From a virus, in IMG/VR virus record IMGVR_UViG_3300036886_000363, positions 19,437 to 83,436 of that record: a DNA stretch of 64,000 nt. One strand, 5' to 3'. The position numbers and the translations under genes were made by a program. Every line of letters starts with the position of its first letter. The first letter of the stretch is position 1. The notes below the pieces were generated by a model, which had not been told where the DNA came from, searched no databases, and saw nothing but the letters and a program-made list of their open reading frames with translations. This document shows positions 8,576 to 50,348 of the stretch, in pieces.

Positions 8576-8601
8576 TCAGATAGAGGCACAATCACGAATA
8601 T

Positions 8602-9275: not shown

Positions 9276-9300
9276 TTTTTGTTTGGTGTCGGTTTGTACT

Positions 9301-10863: not shown

Positions 10864-10864
10864 T

Positions 10865-11234: not shown

Positions 11235-11440
11235 GATTTGTGACTCCTGATTCCCCTGACTTGTTGAATGGCAAACCATACTGAGACAAAAAGCATTCCC
11301 CATTGCTCGGCTGTCCACTCTGCATATAACCAAAATGGTGCCCCGCAAAGTCCGCAGATGAATCCTTGCCTATATCTCTTCCCTGCCAGAAGCCAGATCG
11401 AGAGACAAGAACAAATTACAATCCCTGTCTGACAGATCAT
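11231..11440 (-). CDS. Small membrane protein, PnuC-half-like
   Basis: Three hydrophobic segments, GFICGLCGAPFW...QWGML pattern. Confidence 0.5.
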   Translation of the reverse strand: MICQTGIVICSCLSIWLLAGKRYRQGFICGLCGAPFWLYAEWTAEQWGMLFVSVWFAIQQVRGIRSHKS

Positions 11441-13328: not shown

Positions 13329-13344
13329 ATCTCTCCTTTTGCTT

Positions 13345-13375
13345 ATATTATATCATGGAGATGGTCTGTGGATTA
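13345..13375 (-). promoter_or_regulatory. Class A promoter
   Basis: ATCCACAGACCATCTCCATGATATAATAT directly upstream of the helicase RBS. Confidence 0.7.
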
Positions 13376-13377
13376 TT

Positions 13378-14691
13378 TTAATTCTCTCTGTCAAGAATGT
13401 CGTGGTGTTTGAGATAGCGGGGGAGATTGCTTTCAAACATTGATGGGTGACAGAGCCATCCCGGTGTGACATTGAAATCATTCTCTCGTCCTTCTATTCT
13501 AAATAGGATTGCATCAACGAGATATTTGACCAGTGAACTCGGTTCATTTATACTTTCAGTGGAATCTGTACTTATCTTCCTGCCATTCTTCTTTAGATAA
13601 TCAACAAAGAGACCAGAAGCCTTTATGAAACAGTTTTCGTCTTGAGGTCTTGAATTGGTAAAGCCTTTTTGTTTCCAGATTGATTTGAGACGGGCAGTCA
13701 CATTCGGATATGGATCTTCAAGGGCAGCAGGTTTGAGTCCATAAGCTCCGAGAAGATATTCTTTGCCCTGCACGCATTCCCAAAACCATGAATCGATGTT
13801 CTTTGCGATGTTTTGTGTTTTTAAAGCTTCTTTTTCTATCCTGTCTTGTTTCATAAATCTGGAAATGCTGACCCGATGCCCTATATAATTTATTCGTAGT
13901 TTGTATAAATCCGGATTGTCGAGCATTTCATGATATAAGTCCATTGCCTCTGCTATCTCTGCTTTTGTATATCCTCTTTCAAGCTCGCCTTTAATTCGAG
14001 AGATAGCTGTCTCAAATAACTTTGTTGGTTTGCCTTTTATTTCTTTAACATGAGAAAGGAGGGGTTCTCCAATCATATTCCAATAATCGAAAAGATCCTC
14101 TGCTGTTTTATAAAGAGGCTCTGGAATGGCAACAGCGCTATCGGCGCTGATCCCTACTGGGATATACTTATTTAAATCTATATTTATATTCGTGGACGAA
14201 ATTGTCCTGCCCTCTGGACTTGTTTGTCCTGCCTCATTTTCCGCTGGACTTGTTTGTCCTGGGGCATGGACTTCCACGATTTTATTTATCATTGTTGATA
14301 GCAACTCATAAAGGGGTGTTGCCTCTAATTCATTTGCATATTCAAAATATGTATTGACGAGGGGCTTATAAATAATAGTATATTCGGGATTGATTGCGAT
14401 TACTCTTGAAGTGCCTTGACGGGAAGGAATTAATTCGATGGTTATGTAGGAGTAATTTTGAAGATTTTTTAGAGCCCTTGAAATTACTCGGGGGACAACC
14501 CCTCCGACCAGCTTCCCCAAATACTCGTTTGATGCCCAGCAGTGCTTTGATGTCCGATCTAAGTTTTGTAAATATCCAAAGAGGATTTTTTCTGTCTGAG
14601 TAAGGAAACAATTATATGCGACTTCTCCCGGGATTCCTATTCCTCCCGGTCTTTGCTCATGTTGTTCTATTTTTGGATTTTCCTGTTCCAT
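13378..14691 (-). CDS. Replication initiator-like protein (N-terminal HTH)
   Basis: CWASNEYLG...ISRALKNL HTH pattern; carries internal iterons; lies between primase and helicase. Confidence 0.7.
   Translation of the reverse strand: MEQENPKIEQHEQRPGGIGIPGEVAYNCFLTQTEKILFGYLQNLDRTSKHCWASNEYLGKLVGGVVPRVISRALKNLQNYSYITIELIPSRQGTSRVIAINPEYTIIYKPLVNTYFEYANELEATPLYELLSTMINKIVEVHAPGQTSPAENEAGQTSPEGRTISSTNINIDLNKYIPVGISADSAVAIPEPLYKTAEDLFDYWNMIGEPLLSHVKEIKGKPTKLFETAISRIKGELERGYTKAEIAEAMDLYHEMLDNPDLYKLRINYIGHRVSISRFMKQDRIEKEALKTQNIAKNIDSWFWECVQGKEYLLGAYGLKPAALEDPYPNVTARLKSIWKQKGFTNSRPQDENCFIKASGLFVDYLKKNGRKISTDSTESINEPSSLVKYLVDAILFRIEGRENDFNVTPGWLCHPSMFESNLPRYLKHHDILDREN
14161..14275. other. Putative replication origin (iterons plus AT-rich tract)
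   Basis: GGAC-N6-GTCC at 14194, 14216 and 14246, next to a 30-bp AT-rich run at 14161-14190. Confidence 0.65.
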
Positions 14692-14711
14692 ATTTCTCCT
14701 TTCGGTTAAAA

Positions 14712-14900
14712 ATAAAAACCCCTTAGAAGAGGAATCAAGATCGATGAGAATCAGCCAAGACTTTCAACGATCCTGCCTTGGGAGCGAGGACTCGTTTTAG
14801 CATCGAATCCCGATCCCTCTTCTAAAGGGTTTTTGCAAAACATTACTTGGCTGATTCCTTTCTAAGAACAATCAATAGGGTTGCCCAGACTTCTATTGAT
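14712..14900 (-). promoter_or_regulatory. Structured leader / attenuator of the initiator gene
   Basis: Long stem AAAAACCCTTTAGAAGAGG/CCTCTTCTAAGGGGTTTTT ending in a T-run; alternative pairing AATCAGCCAAG/CTTGGCTGATT. Confidence 0.65.
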
Positions 14901-14903
14901 CTT

Positions 14904-14945
14904 TATCTATATAAACGATTTTGAGGCAGTTGTAAATTTATTATT
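14904..14945 (-). promoter_or_regulatory. Class B promoter (AATAATAAATTTACA-N17-TATATAGATA)
   Basis: Similar copies at 24932 and 46724. Confidence 0.75.
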
Positions 14946-14949
14946 TTTT

Positions 14950-15867
14950 TTAGAAGCCTATGTCCTTCTTTAACTTCCTGATTGTGTCGGGATTCATGTC
15001 TTTGGGATCTCCTTCTTTGAAAGAGATTTGCTCGACATAGGGTATGATACCGGAGAGCTGAGTTGCCATGTCCTTACCTTTGCTTTCCGCATCTGGATCA
15101 AAGAGAACGAAAGCCCTCCTGATCTTCTTGCGGGCAATCATTGCAATCTGCTCCTTTGTCAGATGGGAAGTAAAAGAAGCAACAGATTCATCTCCAAATC
15201 GCCAAACCCCGGTGCAGCCTTCAAACATCAGCATCTTGTCCTTGACGGTATCGATATTATATATGCAATGCTTGACCGGGATGATCGCCCGCTCCGGAGG
15301 GCAATCGAGATATGGAGGACGTTTGTCTTGACGTAAAATATCCATCCCCGTAAAGCTTACAATCTGCCGATTGATAATGATCGGGATAATGACTCTAAAT
15401 CGATATTGCCCGAGTTGCCAGACTGGGTGGAGATGGTATTTCTTAATGAGAGAATGTGGTTCGAAGCCCCTTGATCTGAGGTAGTCAAGGTGGATTTGTG
15501 GCCAAGTTTTCTCGATCTCGTTTTCCGGGAGTAGACTTTGCCATGTCCTTTTAGGGGGAGCAGGATCTTCCCATGGTGATTCGTTTGTTATATCCAGAGG
15601 GAATTCCCGGGCAATCTTTCTTGCCTGTTCATAATTGCAGTTTTCAATCAACTCGATGAGATGATAGACATGACCGGGCGGATTGTCGCACATCCAGCAT
15701 TTGTATTGGAGGCTCTTGAGATTGATGCCTAAGTGCTCGCTGTGATCGACGCAGCCCGGGAGAATGCAATTTATCTCTATCCAGCCTCGTGTAACATTCT
15801 TTCCGCCTGTCTTGATCTTGATATCCCGGGAAGTCAGATAGGCTTTTATGTCAAAGTTGTTTTTCAT
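14950..15867 (-). CDS. DNA primase (Zn finger plus TOPRIM)
   Basis: C..P.C...H...YKCWMC; YLRSRG; RVIIPI; MFEG; LFDPDA; GDPKD. Confidence 0.85.
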   Translation of the reverse strand: MKNNFDIKAYLTSRDIKIKTGGKNVTRGWIEINCILPGCVDHSEHLGINLKSLQYKCWMCDNPPGHVYHLIELIENCNYEQARKIAREFPLDITNESPWEDPAPPKRTWQSLLPENEIEKTWPQIHLDYLRSRGFEPHSLIKKYHLHPVWQLGQYRFRVIIPIIINRQIVSFTGMDILRQDKRPPYLDCPPERAIIPVKHCIYNIDTVKDKMLMFEGCTGVWRFGDESVASFTSHLTKEQIAMIARKKIRRAFVLFDPDAESKGKDMATQLSGIIPYVEQISFKEGDPKDMNPDTIRKLKKDIGF

Positions 15868-16043
15868 TTTTTAAACTTCAAATACACTCTTCTCATTTGA
15901 ATTCATGAATGTCTGTTGGTCCCCATTTTTGCCAACTCCAATTTGTTAAATTATCAAGAGACTGTCCGATGAATCTTTTTATGATAGGAGCAGCGTCTAT
16001 AATTATTTTATTCTTATCTGTCTGGACATAACAAGTAAATTTT

Positions 16044-17453
16044 TTATTCGATATTTGGAGTTCCATAATTTAGCCACCCCTCCTCAGCATAGACAATCAG
16101 CCGGGCAACAGTATGCCGGGCGACGTATTCATAAGGATCCAAAAAGTCAGTGATCTTGATTACCTTCTTGTCAGCTGTCGCCCGGGATCCTCTGCCGATC
16201 TTTTGAAGAGTTGTTCTTTCTTTTAATCCCCCTGCCGCATTGATGACATGATTGAGTGAAGGGATATTGATGCCCTCCTTCCAAACGACGTTGGAAATCA
16301 CTGCCTTGATCTCTTTTGATTCAAGCATATCTTGCAGCTCTTGCCGGGACTGCTTATCTGTTTTGCCATAGACAAAAGGGATATCCAGATCGAAGAGATC
16401 CATCGCCATTTCTTTTAAGATATGTCCGTGATCTGTATCGGCAGATGTTAAGATCAAAACAGATTCACCTGCTAAGATAGACTTATGAGCCTCTGTTAAG
16501 ATCATACGATTGCGGGCGCGGTTTTCCATGATCCCTTTTTGATAGATGTCTTTGAATCTCTGAAGTTCTCCGATAGTCGGAGAATAGGGAACAGCCAGTA
16601 AGTTTATTAGTGGTCGTGCCAAAATTCCTGCCTCCATTCCTTCTTGATAGGAGAAGTCTCCTATGATCGGGCCTAAGTATCCTTCAAGAGTTAATAGTTC
16701 TTTCCTTTCTTTGATTTTGTGAGAAGGAGGGGTTGCTGTCAATCCGATTCTGATAGGGGCCAAAGTGTCTTCGAGGACTTTTGCAAACATTCCATTTTTA
16801 TCTGAAAGATGGTGACATTCATCAAGTATGATGATATCTGCCCAGTCACAATGTTTTCTCAAATCTAAGTTTTTGTAAGTCTGGATTGTTGATATGAGGA
16901 TTGTTGGTTCCTCAGGCCAATCAAAATAATTCTCTCCTCCTCCCAGTACCCAAACATTATTGAACTTGAATTGTTGCCTGAATACACGTTCTGCCTGACT
17001 TAGCAGATCGAGAGTGTGGCAGAGAAAGGAGATATGCCGACTGGGCCAGATAGAGCATATCCCTCCGGCGAGGATAGTCTTGCCCGTTCCTGTCGCACTT
17101 TTAATGACTCCTCTTTGGTTATCTATAATCGATTCAAGTATACTGATTTGATCTTCTCTGAATGTGATCCCGGGAAGCCGGGGAAGTTGTTCTGGCAGGA
17201 GTTCTTCGGGGAGATAGGGAATTGTCAAGGAGATGCCATTTTCATGACAATGTTTTTGAATACGAGGGAGGAGGCCTGAGAGAAATTTGCCTCCTCCCCT
17301 ATGGATCATGCTTGCTTCATATTTGTTTTTTGTTTTCCCGTAAACCCCTCTCCTCCAATGTTCATGGGGATAAGACAAGCAGGGAATAACCAGCTCTAAG
17401 TCTTCGAGGGGTTTTAATCGGGAATAAGTTTGATCGATGACTTCAACTTCCAT
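16044..17453 (-). CDS. SF2 DEAD/DEAH-type helicase
   Basis: FREDQ, SATGTGKT, ILDECHH, GLTATP, EGINIPSL, LQKIGRGSR. Confidence 0.9.
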   Translation of the reverse strand: MEVEVIDQTYSRLKPLEDLELVIPCLSYPHEHWRRGVYGKTKNKYEASMIHRGGGKFLSGLLPRIQKHCHENGISLTIPYLPEELLPEQLPRLPGITFREDQISILESIIDNQRGVIKSATGTGKTILAGGICSIWPSRHISFLCHTLDLLSQAERVFRQQFKFNNVWVLGGGENYFDWPEEPTILISTIQTYKNLDLRKHCDWADIIILDECHHLSDKNGMFAKVLEDTLAPIRIGLTATPPSHKIKERKELLTLEGYLGPIIGDFSYQEGMEAGILARPLINLLAVPYSPTIGELQRFKDIYQKGIMENRARNRMILTEAHKSILAGESVLILTSADTDHGHILKEMAMDLFDLDIPFVYGKTDKQSRQELQDMLESKEIKAVISNVVWKEGINIPSLNHVINAAGGLKERTTLQKIGRGSRATADKKVIKITDFLDPYEYVARHTVARLIVYAEEGWLNYGTPNIE

Positions 17454-17886
17454 TATTGAGAGCCTCAATCTTTGCTGCAAAGTTGAATATCTCGTTGAAC
17501 ATTTGCTTGACAGGGCGAGCCTCGCCCCACTGCTTTTTTATAAGTTTCATGAGTCTTTTTATGTTGACCTGATCCAGCTGATCCCTGACACAGATTCTTA
17601 TCATTTCAGCCGGGCAGTCAGCAATGATTGCGATTGCCTGTTTGGCTTCCTCTGATAAAGAAGCGAACAGTTTTTTCTTCTTCTCTGCGATCTCTTTCAT
17701 CATATAGAGAGATTCCGGAGTATGAGCATTGGTGGAATCTGCGATCTCTTTTTCTATCTGAGAGATCATATTTCTTTCCAGAGTTGCAAGATGATCGAGA
17801 TGAATATAATTGTTAAGATTGAGAACAGCCAGCGCCGCATCAAGAGCAAAAGAAGATTGAGGATCTTTTTGCTTTTTCTTTTTCAT
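17443..17886 (-). CDS. Hypothetical protein
   Basis: ORF with GGAGG RBS, below a class A promoter. Confidence 0.6.
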   Translation of the reverse strand: MKKKKQKDPQSSFALDAALAVLNLNNYIHLDHLATLERNMISQIEKEIADSTNAHTPESLYMMKEIAEKKKKLFASLSEEAKQAIAIIADCPAEMIRICVRDQLDQVNIKRLMKLIKKQWGEARPVKQMFNEIFNFAAKIEALNNGS

Positions 17887-18275
17887 GATTTCTCCTCCTC
17901 CTCAGTGATATTATATATCAGATTTTCGCTGTGGATAGATTTATTTTTCTTCTTGCCGCAGAGTGCATGTTGCCTTCTGAATTGATCGAGATATTCTTTT
18001 TCCAGATAAGACGGATGGATATCCTCGAAACACCATCTCTTTGCCCCGCACCAACATTCTGCGAGGAGCCTAAATTCAACTTCCTCTTCGACAATTGTTT
18101 CTACCCTTCCTCCCGGAATGACTCTTTTGACAATCCAGTTTTCAATCACATGATCCCAAACGATAAAGCGATCATCGTCAGGTAGAGTAATAATTAGAGG
18201 GCCTTTGTAATCTTTGCCGAAGTCTTCATGATCTTCAAAGTGTCTATGTCTTGCCATTAGCGCCTCCTTAGACAA
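17883..18275 (-). CDS. Hypothetical protein
   Basis: ORF track; gene packing. Confidence 0.55.
   Translation of the reverse strand: MSKEALMARHRHFEDHEDFGKDYKGPLIITLPDDDRFIVWDHVIENWIVKRVIPGGRVETIVEEEVEFRLLAECWCGAKRWCFEDIHPSYLEKEYLDQFRRQHALCGKKKNKSIHSENLIYNITEEEEKS
17908..17940 (-). promoter_or_regulatory. Class A promoter (variant, inside the upstream ORF)
   Basis: TATCCACAGCGAAAATCTGATATATAATAT. Confidence 0.5.
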
Positions 18276-18520
18276 TCAATGGCAGCTTGTATTCTGCCAG
18301 CAGCCCTTAGTGAGTTAAGTTTTTCTTTTAGTTTGATGAATCCCTTTTTGTCTTCGGAGGCGGCGAGGAAATAAGTTCCATCTTCTTCTTTGATATAATC
18401 AAAGAGATGATAGTCGTAGATTCTTTGCCCTGCAATTGTGTCGTGGATCTGATATCTTTCCGGGATTGGATTTCGAACTTCTGCAACGGGGATTTCATTG
18501 AGTCCTGTTGTTTTTGTCAT
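18257..18520 (-). CDS. Hypothetical protein
   Basis: ORF with AAGGAGG RBS. Confidence 0.6.
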   Translation of the reverse strand: MTKTTGLNEIPVAEVRNPIPERYQIHDTIAGQRIYDYHLFDYIKEEDGTYFLAASEDKKGFIKLKEKLNSLRAAGRIQAAIDCLRRR

Positions 18521-18532
18521 GGTCTGGCCTCC

Positions 18533-18724
18533 TTATCGTGGTGGTAAGTAATGAGTTTCGATACCGCACTTTTCCCGCCTGATAATTCTCCGGGCTTCCT
18601 TTTCAAGAACTTCAGAAGCGTAGGTGGCAGGCAATATATTATTTCGCTTTGCCTCTCTTTGCAAGGCTTTTTTTGCATCCACAGAGATATATGATCCCTG
18701 CACAACTCGTTTAATCCTTGGCAT
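18533..18724 (-). CDS. Ribbon-helix-helix-like small DNA-binding protein
   Basis: RVVQGSYISVDAKKALQREAKRNN...ASEVLE pattern. Confidence 0.5.
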   Translation of the reverse strand: MPRIKRVVQGSYISVDAKKALQREAKRNNILPATYASEVLEKEARRIIRREKCGIETHYLPPR

Positions 18725-19013
18725 TATCTATTCCCTCCTGATCGTAGAATTTTTCCCACTTCTTTGACTCTCCTTTTTTGCAAGTTTTGTAATGGACGAT
18801 GAGATCGGGATCATCGTCGGCAAGGGCTCCACAATTGATGCATTCATAGACATCCAGATTATCTGTGTGATGAATGACTTCAAGCTCATTGCATTTTTCT
18901 TTATCAATCAAAGTTTTTGTTTCTTGTTTGTGATCTTCCCATGTTCTTCTAAATTGCCAACCCAACCAAAAGGATATTCCGATAAGCAAAATCACTCCTA
19001 TTGCCAATTCCAT
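18711..19013 (-). CDS. Membrane-anchored protein with CxxC
   Basis: N-terminal transmembrane segment; YECINCG...H...C. Confidence 0.6.
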   Translation of the reverse strand: MELAIGVILLIGISFWLGWQFRRTWEDHKQETKTLIDKEKCNELEVIHHTDNLDVYECINCGALADDDPDLIVHYKTCKKGESKKWEKFYDQEGIDNAKD

Positions 19014-19164
19014 AATTTACCTCCTTATCCTTTTCCTTTATTAATTTTGAGCTTCATTTGATAGATGTCTTGTTTGCGGATTACTTTTCCTCCAGTTGCT
19101 TTAATCATAGCAAGATGCAAATGCCATGGGGCTTTGATCCATTCAGTTTTCATCTCTGCCTCCC

Positions 19165-19352
19165 TCAGGTTATTTCCCAGCAGATTAAATCCTCATCGAC
19201 GCGGACAAGTCTCAACTCTTCACCGTTTTTCTTTGGCTTGTTTTCTCTTGCCTCTTTTAGAGTCTCGTAGTTTTGCCCTTTTGAAACCAGTTCTCGCCTT
19301 TAAGGACTTCCCAGTGATAGCTTGTTTTGGTTAATTGGTAGATTCGTTTCAT
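19165..19352 (-). pseudogene. Small hypothetical gene with a 1-nt frameshift
   Basis: MKRIYQL...FQKG continues as NYETLKEARE...CWEIT only if one A is added to an A4 run; the repaired gene ends just before the next RBS. Confidence 0.45.
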
Positions 19353-19777
19353 GATTCCAAAGTCTCCTTTACAAAGTTTTTGAGATTGCGATTCATCTTC
19401 ATCATTAACTCGATGACCTTCTCTACTCCGGCAGTGCATTTGAATTCCCACTGGATTGGATTGCCGAGAAAGTCTGTCTCTTCATTCATCATCTCTTTGG
19501 CCAATCCTCCCGGGCTGATTGTGTAAGTATACCAGTTGGCTGGATCGATGAATCTTGCCTGACCGATAGGAGTTATTTTTTGCAAGAAACTTGACCATCT
19601 CGCAATTGTTGGTTTCTTGTTGTTGATATAGGCGACAACTCCCGGGTAATCATCACAATGATAGCAATGATCGTATCGGAGCATATCGCCTATTGGTAGG
19701 GTTGCCGGATTGAGTTGATCTTCGACTTCATACATCTCGATCTTTTTCACTATGATTTTTGTTGACTTCTTTTTCAT
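19349..19777 (-). CDS. Hypothetical protein
   Basis: ORF track; DMLRYD...PTIARWSSF. Confidence 0.6.
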   Translation of the reverse strand: MKKKSTKIIVKKIEMYEVEDQLNPATLPIGDMLRYDHCYHCDDYPGVVAYINNKKPTIARWSSFLQKITPIGQARFIDPANWYTYTISPGGLAKEMMNEETDFLGNPIQWEFKCTAGVEKVIELMMKMNRNLKNFVKETLES

Positions 19778-35987: not shown

Positions 35988-36199
35988 TGCAAGAGAGCTG
36001 GACTCCCCGTCGGGCAAAATCGACCTCTTGTATTTGTCCTCGTTGTATGGTCAAACATAGGATGAAATTGTTTTGGACGGGTGAATTGCCAGCTCGCAAG
36101 TTTTGCAATAGTTGTAATCAGATCGCGGAGAGAGATTATACTCCAGATTCTCTTTCAATCAGCCCAGATATACTGGAGGTTATGAATGCTTCTTTATGA
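35987..36199 (+). CDS. Small CxxC...CxxC protein
   Basis: CICPRC...FCNSC. Confidence 0.55.
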   Translation: MQESWTPRRAKSTSCICPRCMVKHRMKLFWTGELPARKFCNSCNQIAERDYTPDSLSISPDILEVMNASL

Positions 36200-37226
36200 T
36201 TTCTTGAAAGGTCTTCCCGGAAGCAGATATTTGAAAACCAGAGATGCTGGTTTCAAGGAGGAAGAGCATCCTCGTGGACAGCCGAATAATCCCGGGCAAT
36301 TTGTTGAAGGGGGAGGATCGAGTTCATCCGGATCCGAGGAGTCTGAATCAAAGAAGGAAGAATCACAGTCACAGGAGAAGAGTAACGAAGAGAAACTGAA
36401 AGAGGCGAGAAAGGCTCACAAGGAAGCGCGGGAGAAAAATGATTTTGATGAAATGGTAAAACATCGAAAGACCATAAATGAACTCGAAAAAGTATTGGCT
36501 CCTCCTCCTACAGAGATCGGCAAGACGACATGGGAAGAACAGGCAAAGAGACAGGTCGCGAATAGATATATCAAGGCCAACTTCAATATTAATAGTGTCT
36601 CTGGATCAATCGAGCAGGTCAATGCAACTGGCAGTCATTTATCGAAGCTTTGTAATCAATTCCCGGAAGTGCATTTCCAGTTAAAGAAACATCGTATGAG
36701 TTTTATTAAGTATCAGGGAGAGAATGAAGTTCTTAAATCGAGATATGGACATGAAATGGGAAGAAGATCTCGGGGAGTTTATGAGGACAAAACGGGAGAT
36801 GGTGCAATGCCTGCAATTACAATGAAGGCTTTGAAAAGAAGAGATGCACTTAAATTTGATACAGATGCTGGCAAGGTTGGATATGTTTTTGGCTCGGAGA
36901 ATAATGGGCACAGCGATGGAGATGTTTTGAATCATGAATTAGGCCACCACATGATGTTTTGCATAGGTAAAAAAGCCCGAAGAGAATGGTATGATGTTTG
37001 TGAAAAAATGGGAGGGTCTATTGCTCTGGAAAAGACAGTTTCAAAGTATGCTGGAACAATAATAAAAGCAACTCCAATGGGAGTTGATAGAAATCCGGAA
37101 GATTGGTATCAGGAAGGATTTGCAGAGAGTTTCGCAAAATTTACAAATCCTAATTATAAGAAAGGCAATCTGCCTCAATCAATTGAAAATTATATGACCA
37201 AGTATTTTAAAAAGGACAAATCATGA
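36186..37226 (+). CDS. Zincin-like metallopeptidase with shared N-terminal leader
   Basis: NHELGHH (HExxH), VSKYA, QEGFAESF; leader MLLYDFLKGL...TRDA and FKEEEHPRG...GQF. Confidence 0.75.
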   Translation: MLLYDFLKGLPGSRYLKTRDAGFKEEEHPRGQPNNPGQFVEGGGSSSSGSEESESKKEESQSQEKSNEEKLKEARKAHKEAREKNDFDEMVKHRKTINELEKVLAPPPTEIGKTTWEEQAKRQVANRYIKANFNINSVSGSIEQVNATGSHLSKLCNQFPEVHFQLKKHRMSFIKYQGENEVLKSRYGHEMGRRSRGVYEDKTGDGAMPAITMKALKRRDALKFDTDAGKVGYVFGSENNGHSDGDVLNHELGHHMMFCIGKKARREWYDVCEKMGGSIALEKTVSKYAGTIIKATPMGVDRNPEDWYQEGFAESFAKFTNPNYKKGNLPQSIENYMTKYFKKDKS

Positions 37227-37426: not shown

Positions 37427-37996
37427 ATGCTTCTCTATGATTTCCTAAAAGGATTGAAGGGCAGCAAGTATCTCAAGACAAGAGATGCGATGTCGATTCC
37501 CTTCACTCCCGAGCATTTTAGTGAAGAGTGGAAAGCAGATCAGAAGAAGGTTTTGAAAGAGACTTATCCAGATTTGAGTGAGGATGACTCCCTTCACGAG
37601 ATCAACTTTCAAGGACTGACGATCTCGATAGAGAATCCGGAGGGATCAACCCGGGAAGGCACGAAGCCTGACGGCTCTCCATGGCAGACAAAATTCTTTC
37701 ATCCATATGGCTTTATAAAACATACATTAGGAGTTGATGGGGATGAGGTTGATTGTTTCATCGGCCCGAATCCGACATCACAGAATGTTTATATCATCCA
37801 TCAGAGGATTAATGGAAAGTATGATGAAGATAAGGTCATGCTGGGCTTCGATGATGAGGAGCATGCAAGAGATGCCTATTTGGCGCACTATGACACCCAG
37901 CAGAGGTTAGGCCCTATTACATTCATGCCGTTCAGCCAATTCAAGGAAGTTCTTGAAGAGAAGGGCAAAGCAGGAATCAAACTAAAAGAGGATTAA
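37427..37996 (+). CDS. Inorganic pyrophosphatase-like (InPase) domain protein with shared leader
   Basis: ISIENPEGS.R, YGFI...GVDGDEVDCFIGP, YDEDKVMLGF. Confidence 0.8.
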   Translation: MLLYDFLKGLKGSKYLKTRDAMSIPFTPEHFSEEWKADQKKVLKETYPDLSEDDSLHEINFQGLTISIENPEGSTREGTKPDGSPWQTKFFHPYGFIKHTLGVDGDEVDCFIGPNPTSQNVYIIHQRINGKYDEDKVMLGFDDEEHARDAYLAHYDTQQRLGPITFMPFSQFKEVLEEKGKAGIKLKED

Positions 37997-37999: not shown

Positions 38000-40771
38000 A
38001 TGTCAAAAAAGAAGACAAAAGATTCAACGCCGGATTTCAAGAGAGATTTTGTTGAACCAATAAGAAGAGCAGCAGACAATATCGGAGGAGTATTGCCTCC
38101 ACAACTTGTCTCTTCAGCTCTCCCTCTCTTGCAGCCTTATCCTGTAATTACTCAACCTCCGGTCTGGAGAAAAAGATATGGTGTAGATGATTCTGTCCCC
38201 AAAGATGCGACATTGAAACAATCATCGATGGCAACAGACAGCTTCGCAAATTTTACTGCTCGTCTGGGGATCCAGGCCAGCAATATATCTTCTACGGCAG
38301 GATATGCACTCGGACCTTTCATCACGAGAAACAGAATCGCTCTTGAAGCAGCTTATCGTGATAGTTGGGTTGTCGGGAAGGCGATTGATTGCATCGCCGA
38401 AGACATGACTCAAGCTGGGATTTCGATGCATTCCAAATTGAAACCAGCGGAGATCAAAGATATGCAAGTTGCTATCAGCGAATTCAAGATATGGCATGAT
38501 CTGGGAATGGCGATCAAGTGGGCAAGACTTTATGGAGGTTGTCTTGCTGTCATGATGATAGACGGACATAATTATGAAGCTCCTCTCGACATTACAAGAG
38601 TCGGGAAAGATAAATTCAAGGGGCTTGTTGTCCTTGATAGATGGATGGTTCAACCCAGTATGGGAGAGTTAATAACCGATCTGGGAACGGATATTGGCAT
38701 GCCGAAATTCTATCAGGCGATGCCGGGGGTCTCTACTTTCCCATCAAAGAAGATCCACCATACACGCTGTCTCCGATTTGACGGGATCGAGCTTCCTTAT
38801 TATCAGAAATTGTTTGAAAATCTCTGGGGATTGTCTGTCGTCGAAAGATGCCTCGATCGTCTTCTGGCCTTCGATTCTGCAACTCAGGGTGCTGCCCAGT
38901 TGTTGTATAAATCTCATCTCCGGGTTATCAGGGTGAAGGATTTTCGTCTTGCCCTTGCTGCAGGTGGCAATCAGGAAGAGGCCATGATGAAGATGTTCAT
39001 GTATATCCGGTCAATGCAGACAAATGAAGGATTGACAGTCCTTGATGCTGAAGACGAATTTGCGACTCATTCATATACCTTTGCAGGTGTGTCGGATGCC
39101 CTCCAGCAGTTCGGCCAGCAGATCGCCGGTTCTATTGATACTCCTCTCGTCAGGTTATTTGGACAGAGTCCTGCCGGATTCAGTACGGGAGATACCGACA
39201 TAAGAAACTATTATGACGGGATTAAGAAGAGACAGGAGAACGATCTCCGTCCCCGGCTTGATCCATTGCTTGCAGTCATAGCGATGTCGAGGTTAGGCCA
39301 TGCCCTCCCCGATGACTTTGAATTCAAGTTTATCCCATTATGGCAAATGTCTGAGAATGAAAAATCAGAGATTGCAGGCAAGGTTGTTGATACGGTTGTC
39401 AAGGCAAAGGATGCCGGGTTAATCCCTCTGCATACCGCGATGAAAGAGTTGCAGGAATCTTCCCGGATAACTGGAGTATTTACAAATATAACCGATGAGG
39501 ATATTGAAGAAGCCGAGAATAATCCTCCTGAAGCTCCGATGCCGGGAGCACCCGGTGCTGAGGGCGGGCCAGAAGGAGGAGAGAAGAAGCCAGATGAAAC
39601 AAAAGGAGCCGAAAAGCCAAATGAGAGACTCGGAGCTGCGGATCCCGATGTTGAAAAGGAGAAGATTCCTGAAAAAGAAACTCAAGATGTCGGGAGATCA
39701 TCTGTTAGAGATATTTTTAATATTTGGAGAGAGAAGAGAAGGAAGATATTAAATTCTCTTGATACGATTTTTAAAGAGGAAGAACATCCCAGAGGATCAG
39801 GGGAGAAAGGCGGGCAGTTTGTCAGCAAGGGGGAAGGTGGAACATCGGGAAAGAAGGAAGGAGAAGGTAAAGAATCTAAAGCGGGAACACAGACAGTCAA
39901 GCGCACTAAGTCTACCCAGTCTTTTGAAGAGACGAAACGGGATAAAGAAGGCAAGGTCGTATTGTCATCGGGCAAGCCTCTTCCAAAGCATATGGTTAAT
40001 ACCTATATAGCACCGGCGTGGGAAAATGTCCTTATTAATCCCGATCCCAAAGGAGACTTGTGGGCTGTTGGTCATAACAAGGAAGGTAAAATTGTTGGCT
40101 GGGTCTATAGTGATGAGCATAATAGTGGGAAGGACATTGCTAAGGATAGTATGTACCAAGAGCTGAGAAAGCAATATACGTCTATCGTTCAACAGCTCAA
40201 TAACGATTATAAGGATAAGGATAAAAAGGAGTCAGCTTTCGTTACAAAGATAATAGCTAACACTGGTGCAAGGATAGGCAGTCAGAAAGAAGCTATCGGC
40301 ATAAAGGGGATAAAAACTTACGGCGCATCGACGCTAGAAGCGAGACATATAGTTGCTGAGAAAGACGGTACGGTTAAATTAGATTTTATTGGTAAAGACG
40401 CCAAGCGTAATATCTACACTGTTACAGATAAGAAGGTTGCCGATGAGTTGAAGAGTTTGGTAGCAGGTAAGAAGCCTGCGGATAATTTATTTGCTGCCAA
40501 TTATAATATGTGTCTTAATTATGTCAAGTCTCTTGATGGTGGAGGATTTACTCCTAAGAGTTTTAGGCTTAAGATAGCGACGGACTTAGCATTGCAAACA
40601 ATGAAGACAATGGGAGCGCCAACAGATCCAAAAGATTATAAGAAGAAGGTTTTGGCGGTTGCCAAAACAGTAGCCGAACAATTAAATAATACTCCAGCAA
40701 TAGCTTTGAAGCAGTATATAGTCGCAAGTATATGGACTGACTGGAAGACTAAAGCCGGAGTCGGGGTATAA
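38000..40771 (+). CDS. Portal protein (DUF1073/Acb1-like family) fused to a type IB topoisomerase domain
   Basis: Portal: AIDCIAEDMT, WARLYGG, IHHTRCLRF, PLVRLFGQSPAG, NYYD. Topo IB: IAPAW, RIGS, TYGASTL...H, DFIGK, KSFR, LNNTP...QYI. Confidence 0.9.
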   Translation: MSKKKTKDSTPDFKRDFVEPIRRAADNIGGVLPPQLVSSALPLLQPYPVITQPPVWRKRYGVDDSVPKDATLKQSSMATDSFANFTARLGIQASNISSTAGYALGPFITRNRIALEAAYRDSWVVGKAIDCIAEDMTQAGISMHSKLKPAEIKDMQVAISEFKIWHDLGMAIKWARLYGGCLAVMMIDGHNYEAPLDITRVGKDKFKGLVVLDRWMVQPSMGELITDLGTDIGMPKFYQAMPGVSTFPSKKIHHTRCLRFDGIELPYYQKLFENLWGLSVVERCLDRLLAFDSATQGAAQLLYKSHLRVIRVKDFRLALAAGGNQEEAMMKMFMYIRSMQTNEGLTVLDAEDEFATHSYTFAGVSDALQQFGQQIAGSIDTPLVRLFGQSPAGFSTGDTDIRNYYDGIKKRQENDLRPRLDPLLAVIAMSRLGHALPDDFEFKFIPLWQMSENEKSEIAGKVVDTVVKAKDAGLIPLHTAMKELQESSRITGVFTNITDEDIEEAENNPPEAPMPGAPGAEGGPEGGEKKPDETKGAEKPNERLGAADPDVEKEKIPEKETQDVGRSSVRDIFNIWREKRRKILNSLDTIFKEEEHPRGSGEKGGQFVSKGEGGTSGKKEGEGKESKAGTQTVKRTKSTQSFEETKRDKEGKVVLSSGKPLPKHMVNTYIAPAWENVLINPDPKGDLWAVGHNKEGKIVGWVYSDEHNSGKDIAKDSMYQELRKQYTSIVQQLNNDYKDKDKKESAFVTKIIANTGARIGSQKEAIGIKGIKTYGASTLEARHIVAEKDGTVKLDFIGKDAKRNIYTVTDKKVADELKSLVAGKKPADNLFAANYNMCLNYVKSLDGGGFTPKSFRLKIATDLALQTMKTMGAPTDPKDYKKKVLAVAKTVAEQLNNTPAIALKQYIVASIWTDWKTKAGVGV

Positions 40772-40780
40772 GGAGGCGTT

Positions 40781-40939
40781 ATGGAAGATTATCCAGAGAC
40801 ACAATACGGAAATATTAGAACAGATAAATTTGATTGGCGCAAGTATAGTAACGATACGGATGACGATGTTGATGAACCTGCGTCTGCTATGCTAATTAAA
40901 ATGTTGGGGTTCAATCCCGACGAGGACGAAGAGGAATAA
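40781..40939 (+). CDS. 52-aa acidic protein (candidate Topo IB inhibitor)
   Basis: AAGGAGG RBS; MEDYPETQYG...DWRKYSNDTDDDVDEP...MLGFNPDEDEEE. Confidence 0.65.
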   Translation: MEDYPETQYGNIRTDKFDWRKYSNDTDDDVDEPASAMLIKMLGFNPDEDEEE

Positions 40940-41109
40940 TGTACACCCTCCCATACAGAACGACAGAAGCTCCCAAAGATGAGAAGGCCTATAAAAAAGC
41001 GGTTCTCAAGGTTGCAAAAGAGGTCGCAGCCAAACTCGGCAATACTCCTGCAGTTGCTCTGAAGGCCTATATTAGTCCTGTAGTTTTTGCGCAATGGAGG
41101 ACAAAGTAA
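40939..41109 (+). pseudogene. Orphan second Topo IB C-terminal fragment (56 aa)
   Basis: APKDEKAYKKAVLKVAKEVAAKLGNTPAVALKAYI aligns with APTDPKDYKKKVLAVAKTVAEQLNNTPAIALKQYI of the portal fusion. Confidence 0.8.
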
Positions 41110-41561
41110 TGTTGCTCACCGATATGAGGATAAGGAAGGGAAGATTCATACAAAAAGATGCTGAAGAGGTTTACAAAGGAATCGGCTCTTTATTGGGAGA
41201 AGCAGGTCATGTTGAATCTGGATTAATCGAATTATTCGCCGATAACAAAAAAGTGAAAGATAGCGAGATTCATAAAATGGCTGAACAACTGGGTTGGGAG
41301 GCTGATAAATTGGAAGAGATGGTTTATTCCCTCCTTCAGTCATTCCTTTCTCAGGGCAAGTTTATGAAGGAGGGGCAGGGCAAACAATTCGATGATAAAG
41401 AAGTTGAGATGGGAAAGAAAGTCGAGCTTGAACATACAAACAATCCCATTCTCTCATTGAGAATAACATTGGATCATTTAACAGAGATACCAGACTACTA
41501 TACTCGATTGGCGCAGATGGAGAAAGAAGGGAAGGCGGCAATGAAGGGAGGACAAGAATAA
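41109..41561 (+). CDS. DUF5661-like protein with shared leader
   Basis: MGKKVELEHT...ITLDHLTEIPDYYTRL; likely start MLLTD at 41109 (TAATG coupling). Confidence 0.7.
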   Translation: MLLTDMRIRKGRFIQKDAEEVYKGIGSLLGEAGHVESGLIELFADNKKVKDSEIHKMAEQLGWEADKLEEMVYSLLQSFLSQGKFMKEGQGKQFDDKEVEMGKKVELEHTNNPILSLRITLDHLTEIPDYYTRLAQMEKEGKAAMKGGQE

Positions 41562-42313
41562 TGGCAGACCTGATTCAAGACTTACCGGAAGCTCCTTTTC
41601 AAAAGTCAAAGGCGATCCAGGAGGAGTATGCCCGTGCTCTGAGAGGGGTATCCAGACAAGTTGGAAATTTAATTAAAGGTTACAACCCGACCGATCCTCT
41701 TTCAGCAGAGAGGTTAAGGAAAGCGCTGAGAGCTTATTCAGAACTTATTGGGCCATGGGCAGAGACAATCAGCAAAAGGATCCTTGTGGCTGTCAACAAT
41801 CAAGATTACAATGCTTGGAGGCAGCATAGCCGGGAAATGTCCCTCAAGATGAGGCAAGAGATATTGTCGTCAAATGTGGGCGAGACCTTTCAAAGACTCA
41901 TGAGGGAGAATGTCGAACTCATCAAATCGATACCTTTGAAGGCTGCAGAGAGAGTCCATGAATTGGTCACAGAGAATCTTATGCAGAGCGCCCGGGCAGA
42001 TGAGATATCACAGAAGATAATGGAGTCCGAGAAGGTATCCAAAGTGGTCGCAACCCGGATTGCCCGGACAGAGATTGCAAGAGCATCGAGTACTTTGCTT
42101 CAATCAAGGGCTTTGTCTATTGGGAGTACGGGCTACATTTGGAAGACCTCTAAAGATTTGTTAGTTAGGAAATCACACAAGATAATGGAAGGCAAATTTA
42201 TTAAGTGGAATGATCCGCCAAAACTAAGTGATGGTACGATAACCCATGCCGGGCAAATTTACAATTGCAGATGCTGGCCGGATGTTCAAATTCCTGAAGG
42301 AAATTATTCATGA
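41561..42313 (+). CDS. Head morphogenesis protein (Mu gpF / SPP1 gp7 family)
   Basis: NVELIKSIP, RIARTE, YIWKTSKD..VRKSH, HAGQIYNCRC. Confidence 0.9.
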   Translation: MADLIQDLPEAPFQKSKAIQEEYARALRGVSRQVGNLIKGYNPTDPLSAERLRKALRAYSELIGPWAETISKRILVAVNNQDYNAWRQHSREMSLKMRQEILSSNVGETFQRLMRENVELIKSIPLKAAERVHELVTENLMQSARADEISQKIMESEKVSKVVATRIARTEIARASSTLLQSRALSIGSTGYIWKTSKDLLVRKSHKIMEGKFIKWNDPPKLSDGTITHAGQIYNCRCWPDVQIPEGNYS

Positions 42314-42975
42314 AATATGAACTTTATAATTTAATCTTTCTGAATGGGAAAAGATACATTGGAATTTCTCAGGATTCAAAGAAAAGATTTGTAACCCATA
42401 AAGCGCTTGCGAGAAGTGGATATCCTCAAGCTGTTTATAGAGCAATTAGAAAATATGGAGATAATTCAGTCAAACTTAAAATTTTGGCTGTTGGAGAAAA
42501 GGATTATATTCTTGAAATGGAAAAGAAAGCTATTTTTATTTTTAAAACAATGAATAAGAAGTTTGGGTATAATATGTCTCCCGGAGGAGAAATAAGTCCT
42601 GTTGCTGGCATTGGTCATTCGAAGAAGAGTAAAAGAAAAATGAGCATCTCTCAAAAAAATAGAATTCATACTCCAGAAGAAATTGCTAAGATGGCTGCTT
42701 CTTTAAAGGGAAGAGTTTTTTCAGAAGAACATAAAGAGAAGTTAAGCTTTGCCGCCTCCAAAAGAAAGATCCCAGAACAGATAAGAACAAAAATAAGTGC
42801 TTCTTTAAAAGGAAATATCCCGTGGAATAAAGGGATCCCTCGTTCTAATGAAGTTAAAAGAAGAATATCTGATTCTTTAAAAGGACATTCAGCGACGATT
42901 GGTTTTACTGGCAGAAAACATTCTGAAGAAACAAAACAGAGAATGAGAGAATCTCATTTGAAAAGGGTTGCGTAA
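42310..42975 (+). mobile_element. GIY-YIG homing endonuclease with NUMOD3 repeats
   Basis: LY...NGKRYIGIS...R, GYNMSPGG, HSEETKQRM; AT-rich. Confidence 0.85.
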
Positions 42976-42990: not shown

Positions 42991-43356
42991 ATGTTGCTCA
43001 GTGATTTTTTATCCAAAGGCGTCAAGAACGGGATGTATGCAAAGACAAAAGAGGGGAAGGCTTTTGCCCGGGATGCCTCAATATTAAAATCAAATAAAGA
43101 CTCCGACATCATAATCAATATTAATGTTGGAGAAGGAGATCAGCCCGGGCCAGAGATCATAGCGGCAGAGAATGTTGAAATCCCCGCAGAGACACCGACC
43201 AATACAGAGGGCACAGAGTATAAGGGATATACAATCAAGCAAGAGAATGATGGCAGATTTCTTATCTACTCGATTGGCGGTGCACTGATAACCGAAGCGG
43301 CTTCCCTTGAGCTTGCCATGAATATCATTAATGGAATGGCGATAGATGGAGAATAA
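42991..43356 (+). CDS. Hypothetical head-associated protein with shared leader
   Basis: MLLSDFLSKG...ARDAS. Confidence 0.65.
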   Translation: MLLSDFLSKGVKNGMYAKTKEGKAFARDASILKSNKDSDIIININVGEGDQPGPEIIAAENVEIPAETPTNTEGTEYKGYTIKQENDGRFLIYSIGGALITEAASLELAMNIINGMAIDGE

Positions 43357-46978: not shown

Positions 46979-48118
46979 ATGTTATCATCGGAAGTAAACA
47001 TAGTCAATGGAAGAGTGGTCTCGACGAGAGATGCTGGCATCTCATTTTCGATAGTTGAAGGTATTATTAAACATCATGCTCAATATGAGTGGAAAAGAAA
47101 TATTACCACTTCTGAAGCTAAAAAGATATATGAAAATGTTTCACCCTTCACTGAAGAAAATGTCGTCGCATATCTTAAACGCCATTATTATGAAAAAGAC
47201 ACCGCCGACAAATCCATTTCCTGCCCGGAATGCCAAACGCTTCTTTCAACATTGAAGCATGGGGAGATCAACAATCACATCGACGATCATATCCGCAATC
47301 TTTATAACAAGGCAGCACTCGGAGATAAGGTTACCCAGAAGATCATCAATCTGGAGAGGGCTCGCAAGAATTCGATTTATGATTCGACGGCTACAGAGGG
47401 CAAGTTTTATGTCAAGAAAATAGAGGGAACCAGTCTGTACGGTGTTTTTGAGGAAGGTCGTCCCAATCCCTTAATTCGCTTAGAGAACAAAGAAGAAGCT
47501 GAACGAAAAGCCAAAAGGATGAGAGAAGTGAGAAGAGATTCCAGAGATGCTCCCCGCTGCCAGACAAAAGATATCGGCTTTGGAGGGAAGGGTTATCAAT
47601 GCAGTATCTGCGGAGCGACAGATAGTGTCGCCGGGCATATCAAGCATGTCAAAGATGATGTTCTATATAGTGAGGGCAAGACGAAAATAAGCAAACATGA
47701 AGATGGGAAATATACAGTCGTTAAGGAAGGCAAGTATGTCGGAGAGTATTCTTCTTACGAAGAAGCATTGAAGCATGTCAAGGATGCAGGAGTAATTGGG
47801 ATAGGTTCTCAAGTGAGAGTGAATGCAGGACATCACAAAAATGAATTGGCAAAGATTATTTCCATGGGAGAAGACGGGAACAATTATAGAGTAGAATTTC
47901 CCAATGGGGTTAAAGCCATAGTTTTTCCGATGGATATTACATTGGCCAATGATGCCAAAGATGATGAAGAAGATGTTTTCACAGAGGATCCCCTGACAGG
48001 AGGATCAAGTGAAGAAGCAATTTCTCATAATATAGCTGAAATGGTTAAAGCTGGTCATCCTCAGAAACAGGCAATAGCCGCAGCAATGAAAAAAGCGGGG
48101 AAGAGCAATCAGAGTTAG
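46979..48118 (+). CDS. Putative polyprotein of head-packaged mini-domains
   Basis: Leader ...STRDA; modules separated by xxD sites; includes CxxC modules, a KOW-like module and C-terminal PL..GSS..AISHNIAEMVKAGHPQKQAIAAA. Confidence 0.65.
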   Translation: MLSSEVNIVNGRVVSTRDAGISFSIVEGIIKHHAQYEWKRNITTSEAKKIYENVSPFTEENVVAYLKRHYYEKDTADKSISCPECQTLLSTLKHGEINNHIDDHIRNLYNKAALGDKVTQKIINLERARKNSIYDSTATEGKFYVKKIEGTSLYGVFEEGRPNPLIRLENKEEAERKAKRMREVRRDSRDAPRCQTKDIGFGGKGYQCSICGATDSVAGHIKHVKDDVLYSEGKTKISKHEDGKYTVVKEGKYVGEYSSYEEALKHVKDAGVIGIGSQVRVNAGHHKNELAKIISMGEDGNNYRVEFPNGVKAIVFPMDITLANDAKDDEEDVFTEDPLTGGSSEEAISHNIAEMVKAGHPQKQAIAAAMKKAGKSNQS

Positions 48119-48836: not shown

Positions 48837-50348
48837 ATGCCCGATAAATTTCGGTTTTATATTGAAGAGCAGCTCTCTGAGAATATTGGTAGGACTCCAG
48901 AGGGGTTTCTAATTTGCAAGGATGTCCCGATCACGAGGATCGGAGAGTTCCTTTATAAGGAATCTGAAGTCCCTGTTCAAGCAGGGGCAGATGGTCTTGT
49001 TCGTATACAAAGAGACGAGCCCGATGTTTTTGCAGAAGATACAATCAAATCGTTTGAAGGGAAGCCGGTTACAATCGATCATCCCGATCAGGCGGTTACT
49101 CCTGACAATTGGTCTGATCTTGCAGTAGGGCATGCGAGCAATGTCCGTCGGGGAGATGGAGTCCAGGCCGATTTGCTTTTGGCTGATCTTACGATCACGA
49201 CAGCAAAGGCAATAGAGCTTATTGAGGCAGGGTTGAGGGAAATTAGTTGTGGATATGATGCCAACTATGAACAGATCAGTGAGGGTTATGGTCGGCAGAA
49301 GGACATAGTGGGAAATCATGTGGCTCTCGTTATGAAAGGGAGAGCAGGGGCAAGGTGTGCAATCGCAGATAAGGAATGTACCAACTGCGGAACTTGTAAT
49401 TGTCAAAACAAAAATGTGGGTAAGGAGGTAGATATGAAGAAATCTGTAGTGGACAAGCTCAAGAGCATCAAGCGTTTTCTCGATAGTATCAAGGATGCTG
49501 ATCTTGAGGAGACTGAGGAAGAGAAGAAGAAAAAGGCAAAAGATGCCGAAGAGCTTCCGAAGAAACTTCAGGATATCAAGGACAAGCATGCATCATGGTA
49601 CAAAGATGTCGAATCCGGGAAACTGGATGTCTCTAAACTTCCTATTGAGCTGAAAGAAATTAAAGATGAAGTCGAAGGCTCAAGCAAGAAAGATGAAAAA
49701 GAGACAGAGAGGGCCAAAGAAGCCAAGGATGCCGATGAGGAACAGAAGAAGAAGGATGAGGAAGCCGCAAAGATCAAGGCGTCAGACAAGAAGTTCAGAG
49801 ATCAGGAAGGAAAGATCACTGGGCTTGTCGGGAAGGTTAAGGAGCTTGTCGGCCTCATGGAAGAGCTGGCTGAGAATGACGATGAGGCGGAGGAAGCTCT
49901 GGACAAGAAAATGAGAGATGCCGAAGAGGCGGAGAAGGAGAAAGAGGAAGAGAAGGCTTTTTCCGAGAAGAAAAAGGCAGAGGATGCCTGGCCCGATTTG
50001 GTTCATCGCGTTGAAGTTCTCAATCCCGGCATGCGGATTCAAGTTCCTACAAAGGATCATGCGAAGATCATCCGGCAGATCAAGCTCAACGCTCTCAAAG
50101 GCGCCTACACAAGAGATGAAGACAAACCGACAATCGAAATCTTTGTCAAGGGCGGCCTCGTCGATAAACTCACAAATGACGGATTGGATGCAGCTTTCAT
50201 CGGTGCTTCCGAGTTGATAGCGAGGGGCAGAAATGGCGGGATTCAGAGATCGTCAATGGCCACCCAGGATTTTGCAGCGGCAAATACGGTCAGAGCAATC
50301 AACGAGAAGAATAAGGCTTTTTACGCGGCGAAGACTAAAGTCGCGTAG
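48837..50348 (+). CDS. Head maturation protease (DUF2213) with scaffold region
   Basis: TPEGFL, SFEGKPVTIDHP, EISCGY, NHVALV.GRAG..C; charged C-terminal half. Confidence 0.9.
   Translation: MPDKFRFYIEEQLSENIGRTPEGFLICKDVPITRIGEFLYKESEVPVQAGADGLVRIQRDEPDVFAEDTIKSFEGKPVTIDHPDQAVTPDNWSDLAVGHASNVRRGDGVQADLLLADLTITTAKAIELIEAGLREISCGYDANYEQISEGYGRQKDIVGNHVALVMKGRAGARCAIADKECTNCGTCNCQNKNVGKEVDMKKSVVDKLKSIKRFLDSIKDADLEETEEEKKKKAKDAEELPKKLQDIKDKHASWYKDVESGKLDVSKLPIELKEIKDEVEGSSKKDEKETERAKEAKDADEEQKKKDEEAAKIKASDKKFRDQEGKITGLVGKVKELVGLMEELAENDDEAEEALDKKMRDAEEAEKEKEEEKAFSEKKKAEDAWPDLVHRVEVLNPGMRIQVPTKDHAKIIRQIKLNALKGAYTRDEDKPTIEIFVKGGLVDKLTNDGLDAAFIGASELIARGRNGGIQRSSMATQDFAAANTVRAINEKNKAFYAAKTKVA

Follow-up and report, generated by a model that had tools for sequence, protein, structure and literature searches.

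We analysed a stretch of DNA of 64,000 nucleotides (nt) from a peat-soil phage, hereafter the window, which comprises bases 19437–83436 of an 83,436-nt linear IMG/VR record (IMGVR_UViG_3300036886_000363; CheckV completeness 90%). One open reading frame (ORF) of its plus strand, at 38000..40771, encodes a phage portal protein, a low-complexity linker and a type IB topoisomerase (TopIB). The gene lies in a head module, after the small and large terminases and ahead of a MuF-like protein, a protease and the major head protein (Table 1). An earlier note, made from the letters of the sequence, had proposed that the portal carries an apparently intact TopIB in the same frame, with no intervening stop. 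Pfam searches, alignment to the Protein Data Bank (PDB), a structure model and Foldseek all bear this out, and both domains of the ORF are real.

The portal part, of the PF06381/TIGR01555 type, matches PF06381 over nearly the full length of the profile (positions 2–355 of 357), and the PHROG portal profile phrog_146 spans residues 68–580 of the fusion (E = 2.8e-134). At the other end, Topoisom_I (PF01028) matches residues 710–902 with E = 4.2e-20 and 72.5 bits (curated cut-off, 23.7 bits), which supplies the hidden Markov model confirmation that the earlier note had proposed as a check; the C-terminal part by itself scores 75.5 bits against the same family. A weak match to Top1B_N_bact at residues 670–692 (18.9 bits) falls under the cut-off of 27. 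The topoisomerase had been placed from position 39761, which corresponds to residue 588 and falls in the linker. The enzyme does follow, with its globular part beginning near residue 655 (nt ~39964). In an alignment of the fusions, the linker between portal and TopIB differs from one relative to another in both length and content.

When the fusion was compared with the PDB using phmmer, the top match was the TopIB of Deinococcus radiodurans (2f4q; E = 8.2e-12). Residues R137, K174, R239, N280 and Y289 of 2f4q, which we take to be the catalytic positions of that enzyme, align with R758, K799, R856, N897 and Y906 of the fusion. These five residues coincide exactly with the motifs RIG, FIGK, SFR, NNTP and QYI that had been picked out by eye, and they stand in the contexts ARIGS (R758; codon at nt 40271–40273), FIGK (K799; 40394–40396), SFR (R856; 40565–40567), LNNTP (N897; 40688–40690) and KQYI (Y906; 40715–40717); the codons of N897 and Y906 were verified against the bases of the window. 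R758, R856 and Y906 are invariant in 22 aligned fusions, in which K799 is almost so, and the same three are invariant in 33 aligned TopIB domains, in which both K799 and N897 are almost so.

An AlphaFold2 model of residues 640–923, built from the alignment of 33 TopIB domains, has a mean predicted local distance difference test score (pLDDT) of 94 and a predicted template modelling score (pTM) of 0.84. It shows beta strands at its residues 4–64 followed by a helical catalytic domain, the two-domain clamp fold. Searched against the PDB with Foldseek, the model matched type IB topoisomerases exclusively at E ≤ 1e-3 (bacterial, variola and human), led by 3m4a, 2f4q, 2h7f and human Topo I, each with a probability of 1.00; tyrosine recombinases were listed only at E above 0.01. 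The TopIB domain of the fusion is apparently complete and active, as judged from its residues and predicted fold. The D. radiodurans enzyme (2f4q/3m4a) is the best match in both sequence and fold, with the same R-K-R-N-Y pentad and the same two-domain organization. It is, however, a cellular, free-standing protein with about 22–25% identity, whereas the phage enzymes form a large group of their own.

The junction between the two domains is real. A 1-kb stretch over the linker was recovered whole in 14 peat-metagenome runs (Logan contigs), among which the source sample may be included. Two contigs, one of 5,136 nt and the other of 20,798 nt, span 38000–41600 with 0 differences, and short contigs of two other studies tile the same region, also with 0 differences; for runs X15 and X19 we used the identical pieces as evidence, and not depth or partial cover. 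The same architecture, PF06381 followed by PF01028, occurs in 31 of 36 database relatives (507–1616 residues long, found with the TopIB part) at 31–54% identity. One further relative joins a Mu-type portal (PF06074) to PF01028, and the remaining four are P0003, P0011, P0035 and P0037. The TopIB part is also encoded in 7 of 80 IMG/VR loci kept for their portal. To judge from these sequences, recurrence of the fusion at such divergence is stronger evidence than the agreement of contigs, and the two together exclude an assembly artefact for practical purposes.

Among 50,697 deposited phage records we found 1,515 portal matches, none of which covers 80% of the fusion, so the fused form does not occur there. 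TopIB itself was found in seven of these records, always as a free-standing gene of a jumbo phage (Ralstonia phiRSL1 and the Rhizobium RHph_I42 group; jumbo-phage TopIBs are noted in PMC7824862). These enzymes, in contrast to the one in the window, are not fused to a structural protein. They share 30–32% identity with it over part of the domain and presumably serve replication or transcription in the cell. Literature searches retrieved no paper describing a portal–TopIB fusion, and TopIB as portal-fused cargo is, as far as our searches reach, new in print.

The topoisomerase belongs to a large clade. When residues 640–923 were scored against 1.84 billion cluster representatives, 3,106 matched at E ≤ 1e-3, of which 377 reached E ≤ 1e-30. 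A local TopIB profile detects the domain in all of the 150 best matches, and in 128 of the 150 it ends within 40 residues of the C terminus. We surveyed second domains with Pfam (E ≤ 1e-6) in 65 of these 150 representatives. Portals are present in 15 (14 PF06381 and 1 Mu-type PF06074), MuF in six, and InPase in four, one of which also has a portal. An ADP-ribosyltransferase (ART) accompanies TopIB in two (ADPrib_exo_Tox is among the domain names), and a Zeta toxin in one, together with a methyltransferase and pentapeptide repeats; NUDIX, GATase and a DUF2213 prohead protease occur once each. Some relatives combine more than two domains: portal, ART-PolyVal and TopIB in P0031 and P0032; portal, TopIB and InPase in P0015; and Zeta, ART and TopIB in P0037. 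P0015, P0031, P0032 and P0042 have two cargo domains, whereas the protein of the window is a portal plus one enzyme. Other members of the clade are free-standing, and three of these (P0044, P0066 and P0077) start with a short leader and a motif containing HPR, like head genes that neighbour the portal in the window. The phage TopIB clade is widespread and so far known only from metagenomes, and portal fusion is, from its domain partners, one of several predicted routes into the head.

The linker contains a conserved element. The earlier note had suggested release of the topoisomerase at an LD/T site. Such a site would require a copy, within the linker, of the leader seen on neighbouring genes (below); a profile of these leaders finds no internal copy there, and the suggestion, for which a resemblance by eye is left, has no support from any test. 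The conserved boundary element is instead the motif EEHPRG..GQF (HPR motif). When the window was translated in six frames, HPR..G.F was found at two places, in the portal linker and after the leader of the ORF at 36186. An HPR-type motif lies within 160 residues upstream of TopIB, mostly at 20–60 residues, in 60 of 150 relatives, and the multi-domain relatives P0097, P0120 and P0162 have several copies. Other fusions have an alternative conserved boundary peptide, LRAPKGGV.IKGK.F.GGEFIPS, which is found on both sides of the ART domain in P0032.

More generally, related polyvalent proteins show boundary peptides of several kinds in front of cargo domains: HPR..G.F, [DQ]xPRDxxG[RQ][FW], GSGNxGHxGRPGxVGG, LRAPKGGV..GGEFIPS and W[VI]T[VI]xG. 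They were seen in P0097, P0120, P0162, P0032, P0043, P0079 and others, sometimes before each domain. We found no description of such peptides in the main text of Iyer et al. 2017 (PMC5512222), which mentions neither an HPR-type motif nor an N-terminal leader and in which the terms ‘linker’ and ‘conserved motif’ occur 0 times.

The HPR motif also coincides with a change of ancestry. Sliding-window identity shows that the fusion tracks P0016 and P0017 through the portal (66–67%), up to about residue 620, and that past this point it tracks P0002 and P0004 (53% versus 38%). This switch places a recombination crossover at the HPR motif. Downstream of the fusion we found a relic, a 56-codon ORF that matches the final ~50 residues of an older TopIB, distinct from the present one. 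It retains the Asn/Tyr motif as LGNTP....AYI and is identical to the C terminus of P0016 at 36 of 45 positions, to that of P0017 at 31 of 48, and to that of the adjoining fusion at 28 of 50. Its stop codon overlaps the ATG at 41109 of a DUF5661 gene, an overlap of the form TAATG is present at either end of the relic, and an equivalent overlap is seen in locus L004 between the intact P0017 gene and the DUF5661 gene next to it. Because the relic is closer to P0016 than to its own fusion, the simplest reading is that a cassette of a different lineage took the place of an ancestral P0016/P0017-like TopIB, starting at the HPR motif, and left the old 3′ end where it was.

A small ORF lies between the stop codon of the new TopIB and the relic; a count by eye gives 17 acidic residues in it against 5 basic ones. 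Using a profile built from six such ORFs, we detected it in 9 of 12 TopIB loci (the window, L004, L009, L011, L020, L026, L085, L086 and L088; seeds and one duplicate counted) and in 0 of 73 portal-only loci, although this contrast may be inflated by relatedness, since most of the latter come from phages of other types. The independent matches are L086 and L088, in which the ORF stands behind a free-standing TopIB in the order portal–MuF–TopIB. It is about 50–65 residues long in most loci and longer in L088, with the motif PAS..LI..LGF[ND]PDE; L010 and L012 have a diverged version by eye, and L087 has none. We found no family or PHROG match and no usable match in the ESM Atlas. In the window the acidic ORF moved along with the TopIB cassette, and this co-transfer argues for a functional pair.

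Table 1 Features of the head module and fusion gene (window coordinates; single numbers as given)
Feature	Coordinates	Strand	Basis or remark
Small terminase	24986	+	PHROGs/Pfam
Large terminase	31000	+	PHROGs/Pfam
Protein with leader MLLYDFLKGLPGSRYLKTRDA, FKEEEHPRG..GQF and HELGH motif	36186..37226	+	Sequence patterns; candidate metallopeptidase
InPase (PF18823), polyvalent-protein-type pyrophosphatase, leader MLLYDFLKGLKGSKYLKTRDA	37427..37996	+	Pfam, PHROGs
Portal–linker–TopIB fusion gene	38000..40771	+	One stop-free frame of 923 residues; same letters in independent contigs
Portal domain, PF06381 (Phage_portal_3), residues 114–466	38339..39397	+	Pfam, E = 3.1e-105
Low-complexity linker, ~140 residues (about 510–654), Gly/Glu/Lys/Pro-rich	39527..39963	+	Read from sequence
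Boundary HPR motif FKEEEHPRGSGEKGGQF (EEHPRG..GQF), in linker	39770..39820	+	Pattern search
TopIB, small N-terminal beta domain and catalytic domain, about residues 655–915	39964..40744	+	Pfam, PDB alignment, model
Small acidic ORF, 52 residues	40781..40939	+	Between new TopIB stop and relic
Relic ORF, 56 codons, C-terminal ~50 residues of an older, different TopIB	40939..41109	+	Second match of the fusion within its own record
DUF5661 protein, leader MLLTDMRIRKGRFIQKDA (MLLTDM..)	41109..41561	+	Pfam; start at 41094 in the ORF list
MuF-like head morphogenesis protein	41561..42313	+	Pfam, PHROGs
GIY-YIG homing endonuclease, between MuF and next leader-bearing ORF	42310..42975	+	
121-residue ORF, leader-like start MLLSDFLSKG..	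42991..43356	+	By eye
379-residue ORF, leader MLSSEVNIVNGRVVSTRDA	46979..48118	+	Leader pattern
DUF2213 (PF09979) protein	48837..50348	+	Head maturation protease by PHROGs; candidate processing enzyme
Major head protein	51090	+	PHROGs
Sheath	54739	+	Tape measure and baseplate genes beyond

The plus-strand arm of the window is a myovirus structural module, in which several otherwise unrelated proteins begin alike. A leader of ~20 residues, with the consensus ML[LS]x[DE]hh..K/N-G..h..T-[KR]-D-A, is recognized by a strict pattern in four genes of the window (36186, 37427, 41109 and 46979) and by eye in a fifth (42991). It recurs in L004, L009, L020, L024, L026, L038 and L085, on InPase, DUF5661 and unknown genes. 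Over 85 loci, the strict pattern was found in 19 of 8,092 plus-strand frames starting with ATG as against 0 of 2,540 minus-strand frames. By analogy, the leader may be a capsid-targeting signal or a propeptide, and so a route into the prohead. The closest precedent is the capsid-targeting sequence of T4 IPII and IPIII, likewise a short N-terminal peptide shared by unrelated head-module proteins (PMC9958956). The leader in the window has no sequence similarity to it, and the TopIB of the window uses portal fusion instead of a leader.

A zincin peptidase was one candidate identity for the leader-bearing ORF at 36186. HELGH is present in this ORF, but it has no Pfam match at E ≤ 1 and matches one weak PHROG family of unknown function (E ≤ 0.01), and relatives match it over the first ~50 residues only; a peptidase is possible at most. 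The InPase gene stands separately, just upstream of the portal; a related viral contig, L059 (7899–9878, plus strand), has InPase and portal joined in one ORF, as Iyer et al. had noted for BcepF1.

The other arm carries genes for a DnaE-type polymerase, helicases, a methylase, a RecA-like protein, FEN, FolE, QueC, QueD and a radical-SAM protein. It includes a 7-deazaguanine cluster (6884–11799, minus strand) of GTP cyclohydrolase I with a PRTase-like N terminus, QueC, the radical-SAM protein and QueD/PTPS, and this pathway suggests that the phage DNA is probably modified. Outside the window, bases 1–19436 of the record (L084) encode a NADAR-domain protein (5174–5662, minus strand) and a helicase–DNA methylase fusion (16617–18890, minus strand). 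A genome scan for clues to the host returned four contigs of metagenome-assembled genomes only, all phage-like, from which no host can be named.

Portals usually form a dodecameric ring at one vertex of the capsid, and in solved portals the C terminus lies in the crown, facing the interior of the head. A portal extended at this terminus by a flexible linker and TopIB would place the enzyme inside the head, with up to 12 copies per virion beside the end of the DNA. There the DUF2213 prohead protease or the HExxH protein encoded nearby would most likely sever the topoisomerase at the conserved linker motif or close to it, and once released it would leave with the DNA into the cell. In the cell it would serve as a swivel that needs no ATP, acting on the newly delivered genome, which is under topological constraint, for early transcription or replication, or on host DNA. 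We therefore propose, with a probability of roughly 60%, that the portal-fused, apparently active TopIB is virion cargo, most likely cleaved off and injected, in parallel with the encapsidated topoisomerase of vaccinia virus. Its location inside the head, its cleavage, its injection and its target are what we infer; the frame, the two domains, the catalytic residues, the predicted fold, the recurrence of the fusion and its links to other cargo domains are observed.

The argument rests on how the clade is distributed. Its members appear to be loaded via MuF, a prohead protease, polyvalent proteins or the leader, as well as via the portal, and what these routes would have in common is the inside of the head and not the portal channel. 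This common denominator speaks for a cargo that departs along with the DNA, probably once a protease has freed it. The earlier note had offered two functions for the fused enzyme, relief of torsion during packaging or ejection and injection to act on DNA early in infection. Comparative evidence favours the second, that it is packaged and injected, and a swivel specific to the portal fits the spread of the clade less well.

Precedents exist for both halves of the proposal. Iyer, Burroughs, Anand, de Souza and Aravind (2017; PMC5512222), in their main text, describe portal and MuF proteins to which PBECR, 2H or InPase domains are fused, and predict that these domains are injected. In those effectors, as exemplified by the portal–InPase of Burkholderia phage BcepF1, and in the fusion of the window, an enzyme is appended to the C terminus of the portal, and the clade of the window shares partners with the polyvalent network (InPase PF18823, ART-PolyVal PF18760 and MuF) as well as its head-module context. 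Polyvalent proteins have 2–15 distinct domains per polypeptide, whereas the protein of the window has one cargo domain. The main text does not discuss TopIB (the word ‘topoisomerase’ occurs once, in a reference).

According to PMC12188299, which also cites its encapsidation, the type I topoisomerase of vaccinia virus works mainly in early transcription. The poxvirus enzymes (vaccinia and variola; PDB 2h7f and 1a41) belong to the same family and share the fold, with a template modelling (TM) score of 0.69 to variola in Foldseek and 18–19% identity in the Foldseek alignments. A poxvirus TopIB is a free protein of 314 residues with His at the fourth catalytic position, whereas that of the window has Asn, as in bacterial TopIB, and is part of a structural protein. 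The former is carried in the particle, as the latter is predicted to be.

Several observations weigh against injected cargo. No second Pfam domain was found in 35 of the 65 representatives surveyed, and P0052, P0038 and other ‘free’ forms of TopIB are visibly fragments of fusions. The leader profile, built from 17 leaders, has no match in the fusion of the window (P0001), and its best match in any fusion has E = 0.46. On a tree of 183 TopIB domains (FastTree; a quick tree, with some rows fragments), the portal-fused state requires 26 changes, or 24 after rows not starting with Met were dropped, compared with a mean of 49 and a minimum of 42 in 300 shuffles. As far as this tree can be relied on, 26 versus 49 changes shows clustering together with repeated exchange, and the clustering leaves room for a role specific to the portal. 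Furthermore, a subclade of portal–TopIB fusions (P0005–P0009) has Asp in the column of N897 (INDTP/LNDTP; alignment A1), and with Asp at the catalytic Asn/His site not every member of the fusion family need be fully active.

The alternative that survives best, which we nevertheless consider unlikely, is that the enzyme never enters the host. Tethered at the portal crown, it would act as a swivel within the capsid and relieve twist during packaging or ejection by nicking and resealing the DNA. Such a role would account for fusion to the portal, the passage for all DNA, and for the fact that a second, unrelated portal family (PF06074) is likewise fused to TopIB. It is also consistent with the absence of a cleavage site detectable by the leader profile in the linker, with the clustering of portal-fused TopIBs on the tree, and with the binding of MuF, another fusion partner, to the portal in SPP1 (PMC5576092). 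A portal-bound role does not, however, explain why the same clade occurs with ART, Zeta, NUDIX and InPase in polyvalent proteins, and free-standing with a leader. In addition, the long disordered linker and the boundary motif repeated before cargo domains look like features of release or modularity.

We give little credence to a second alternative, in which the injected TopIB is directed at the host, where it would relax or damage the chromosome for shut-off or counter-defence, and the acidic ORF would encode an inhibitor or chaperone in the producing cell. The association of that ORF with TopIB, including at L086 and L088, and its co-transfer with the cassette would fit such a pair, and relatives of the fusion are co-fused with Zeta and ART domains of toxin type. 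Jamet et al. 2017 (PMC5576092), who make no mention of topoisomerase, describe small ORFs that lie behind MuF toxins and putatively confer immunity to them. The likeness of the acidic ORF to these immunity ORFs is a lead only. Against an effector role, relatedness may in part account for the association, given that phages of other types make up most of the portal-only loci compared, and the acidic ORF matches no family or Atlas entry.

Topoisomerases of the pox type are site-specific and able to transfer strands. It is conceivable, but very improbable, that the fused enzyme forms a covalent 3′-phosphotyrosyl link near the end of the genome and, as a pilot or recombinase, protects this end or aids circularization by strand transfer. 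The chemistry of the family and the position of the enzyme beside the last-packaged DNA end would allow it, and nothing else speaks for it. The comparative data do not point specifically to a pilot or recombinase anywhere, and a simple start-of-record repeat test found no terminal repeat in the record, which is an incomplete linear contig. Finally, although the window comes from a metagenome assembly and one subclade has Asp at the Asn/His position, a chimaeric assembly or a dead domain kept as a spacer has next to no probability, given identical independent contigs over the junction, the shared architecture of diverged relatives, catalytic residues kept in both alignments and a high-confidence model.

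TopIB is rare in cultured phages (7 of 50,697 records), and that of the window belongs to a large metagenomic clade in which it seems to be wired into the head via portal, MuF, protease or leader. Several features of the locus give access to the loading and exchange of cargo: a boundary motif that is also a recombination joint, the fossil left by the swap, a leader common to five genes, and a putative acidic partner. The geometry of a portal-tethered enzyme bears on the long-standing question of torsional stress in packaging and ejection, and if the topoisomerase did act there as a swivel, this would be the first known case of an enzyme at work on DNA within a phage capsid, and a built-in means of dissipating twist during packaging. 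If it is instead packaged for delivery, an activity on DNA topology would be added to the known injected phage proteins, and tailed phages, like poxviruses, would supply the cell that they infect with a swivel of their own.

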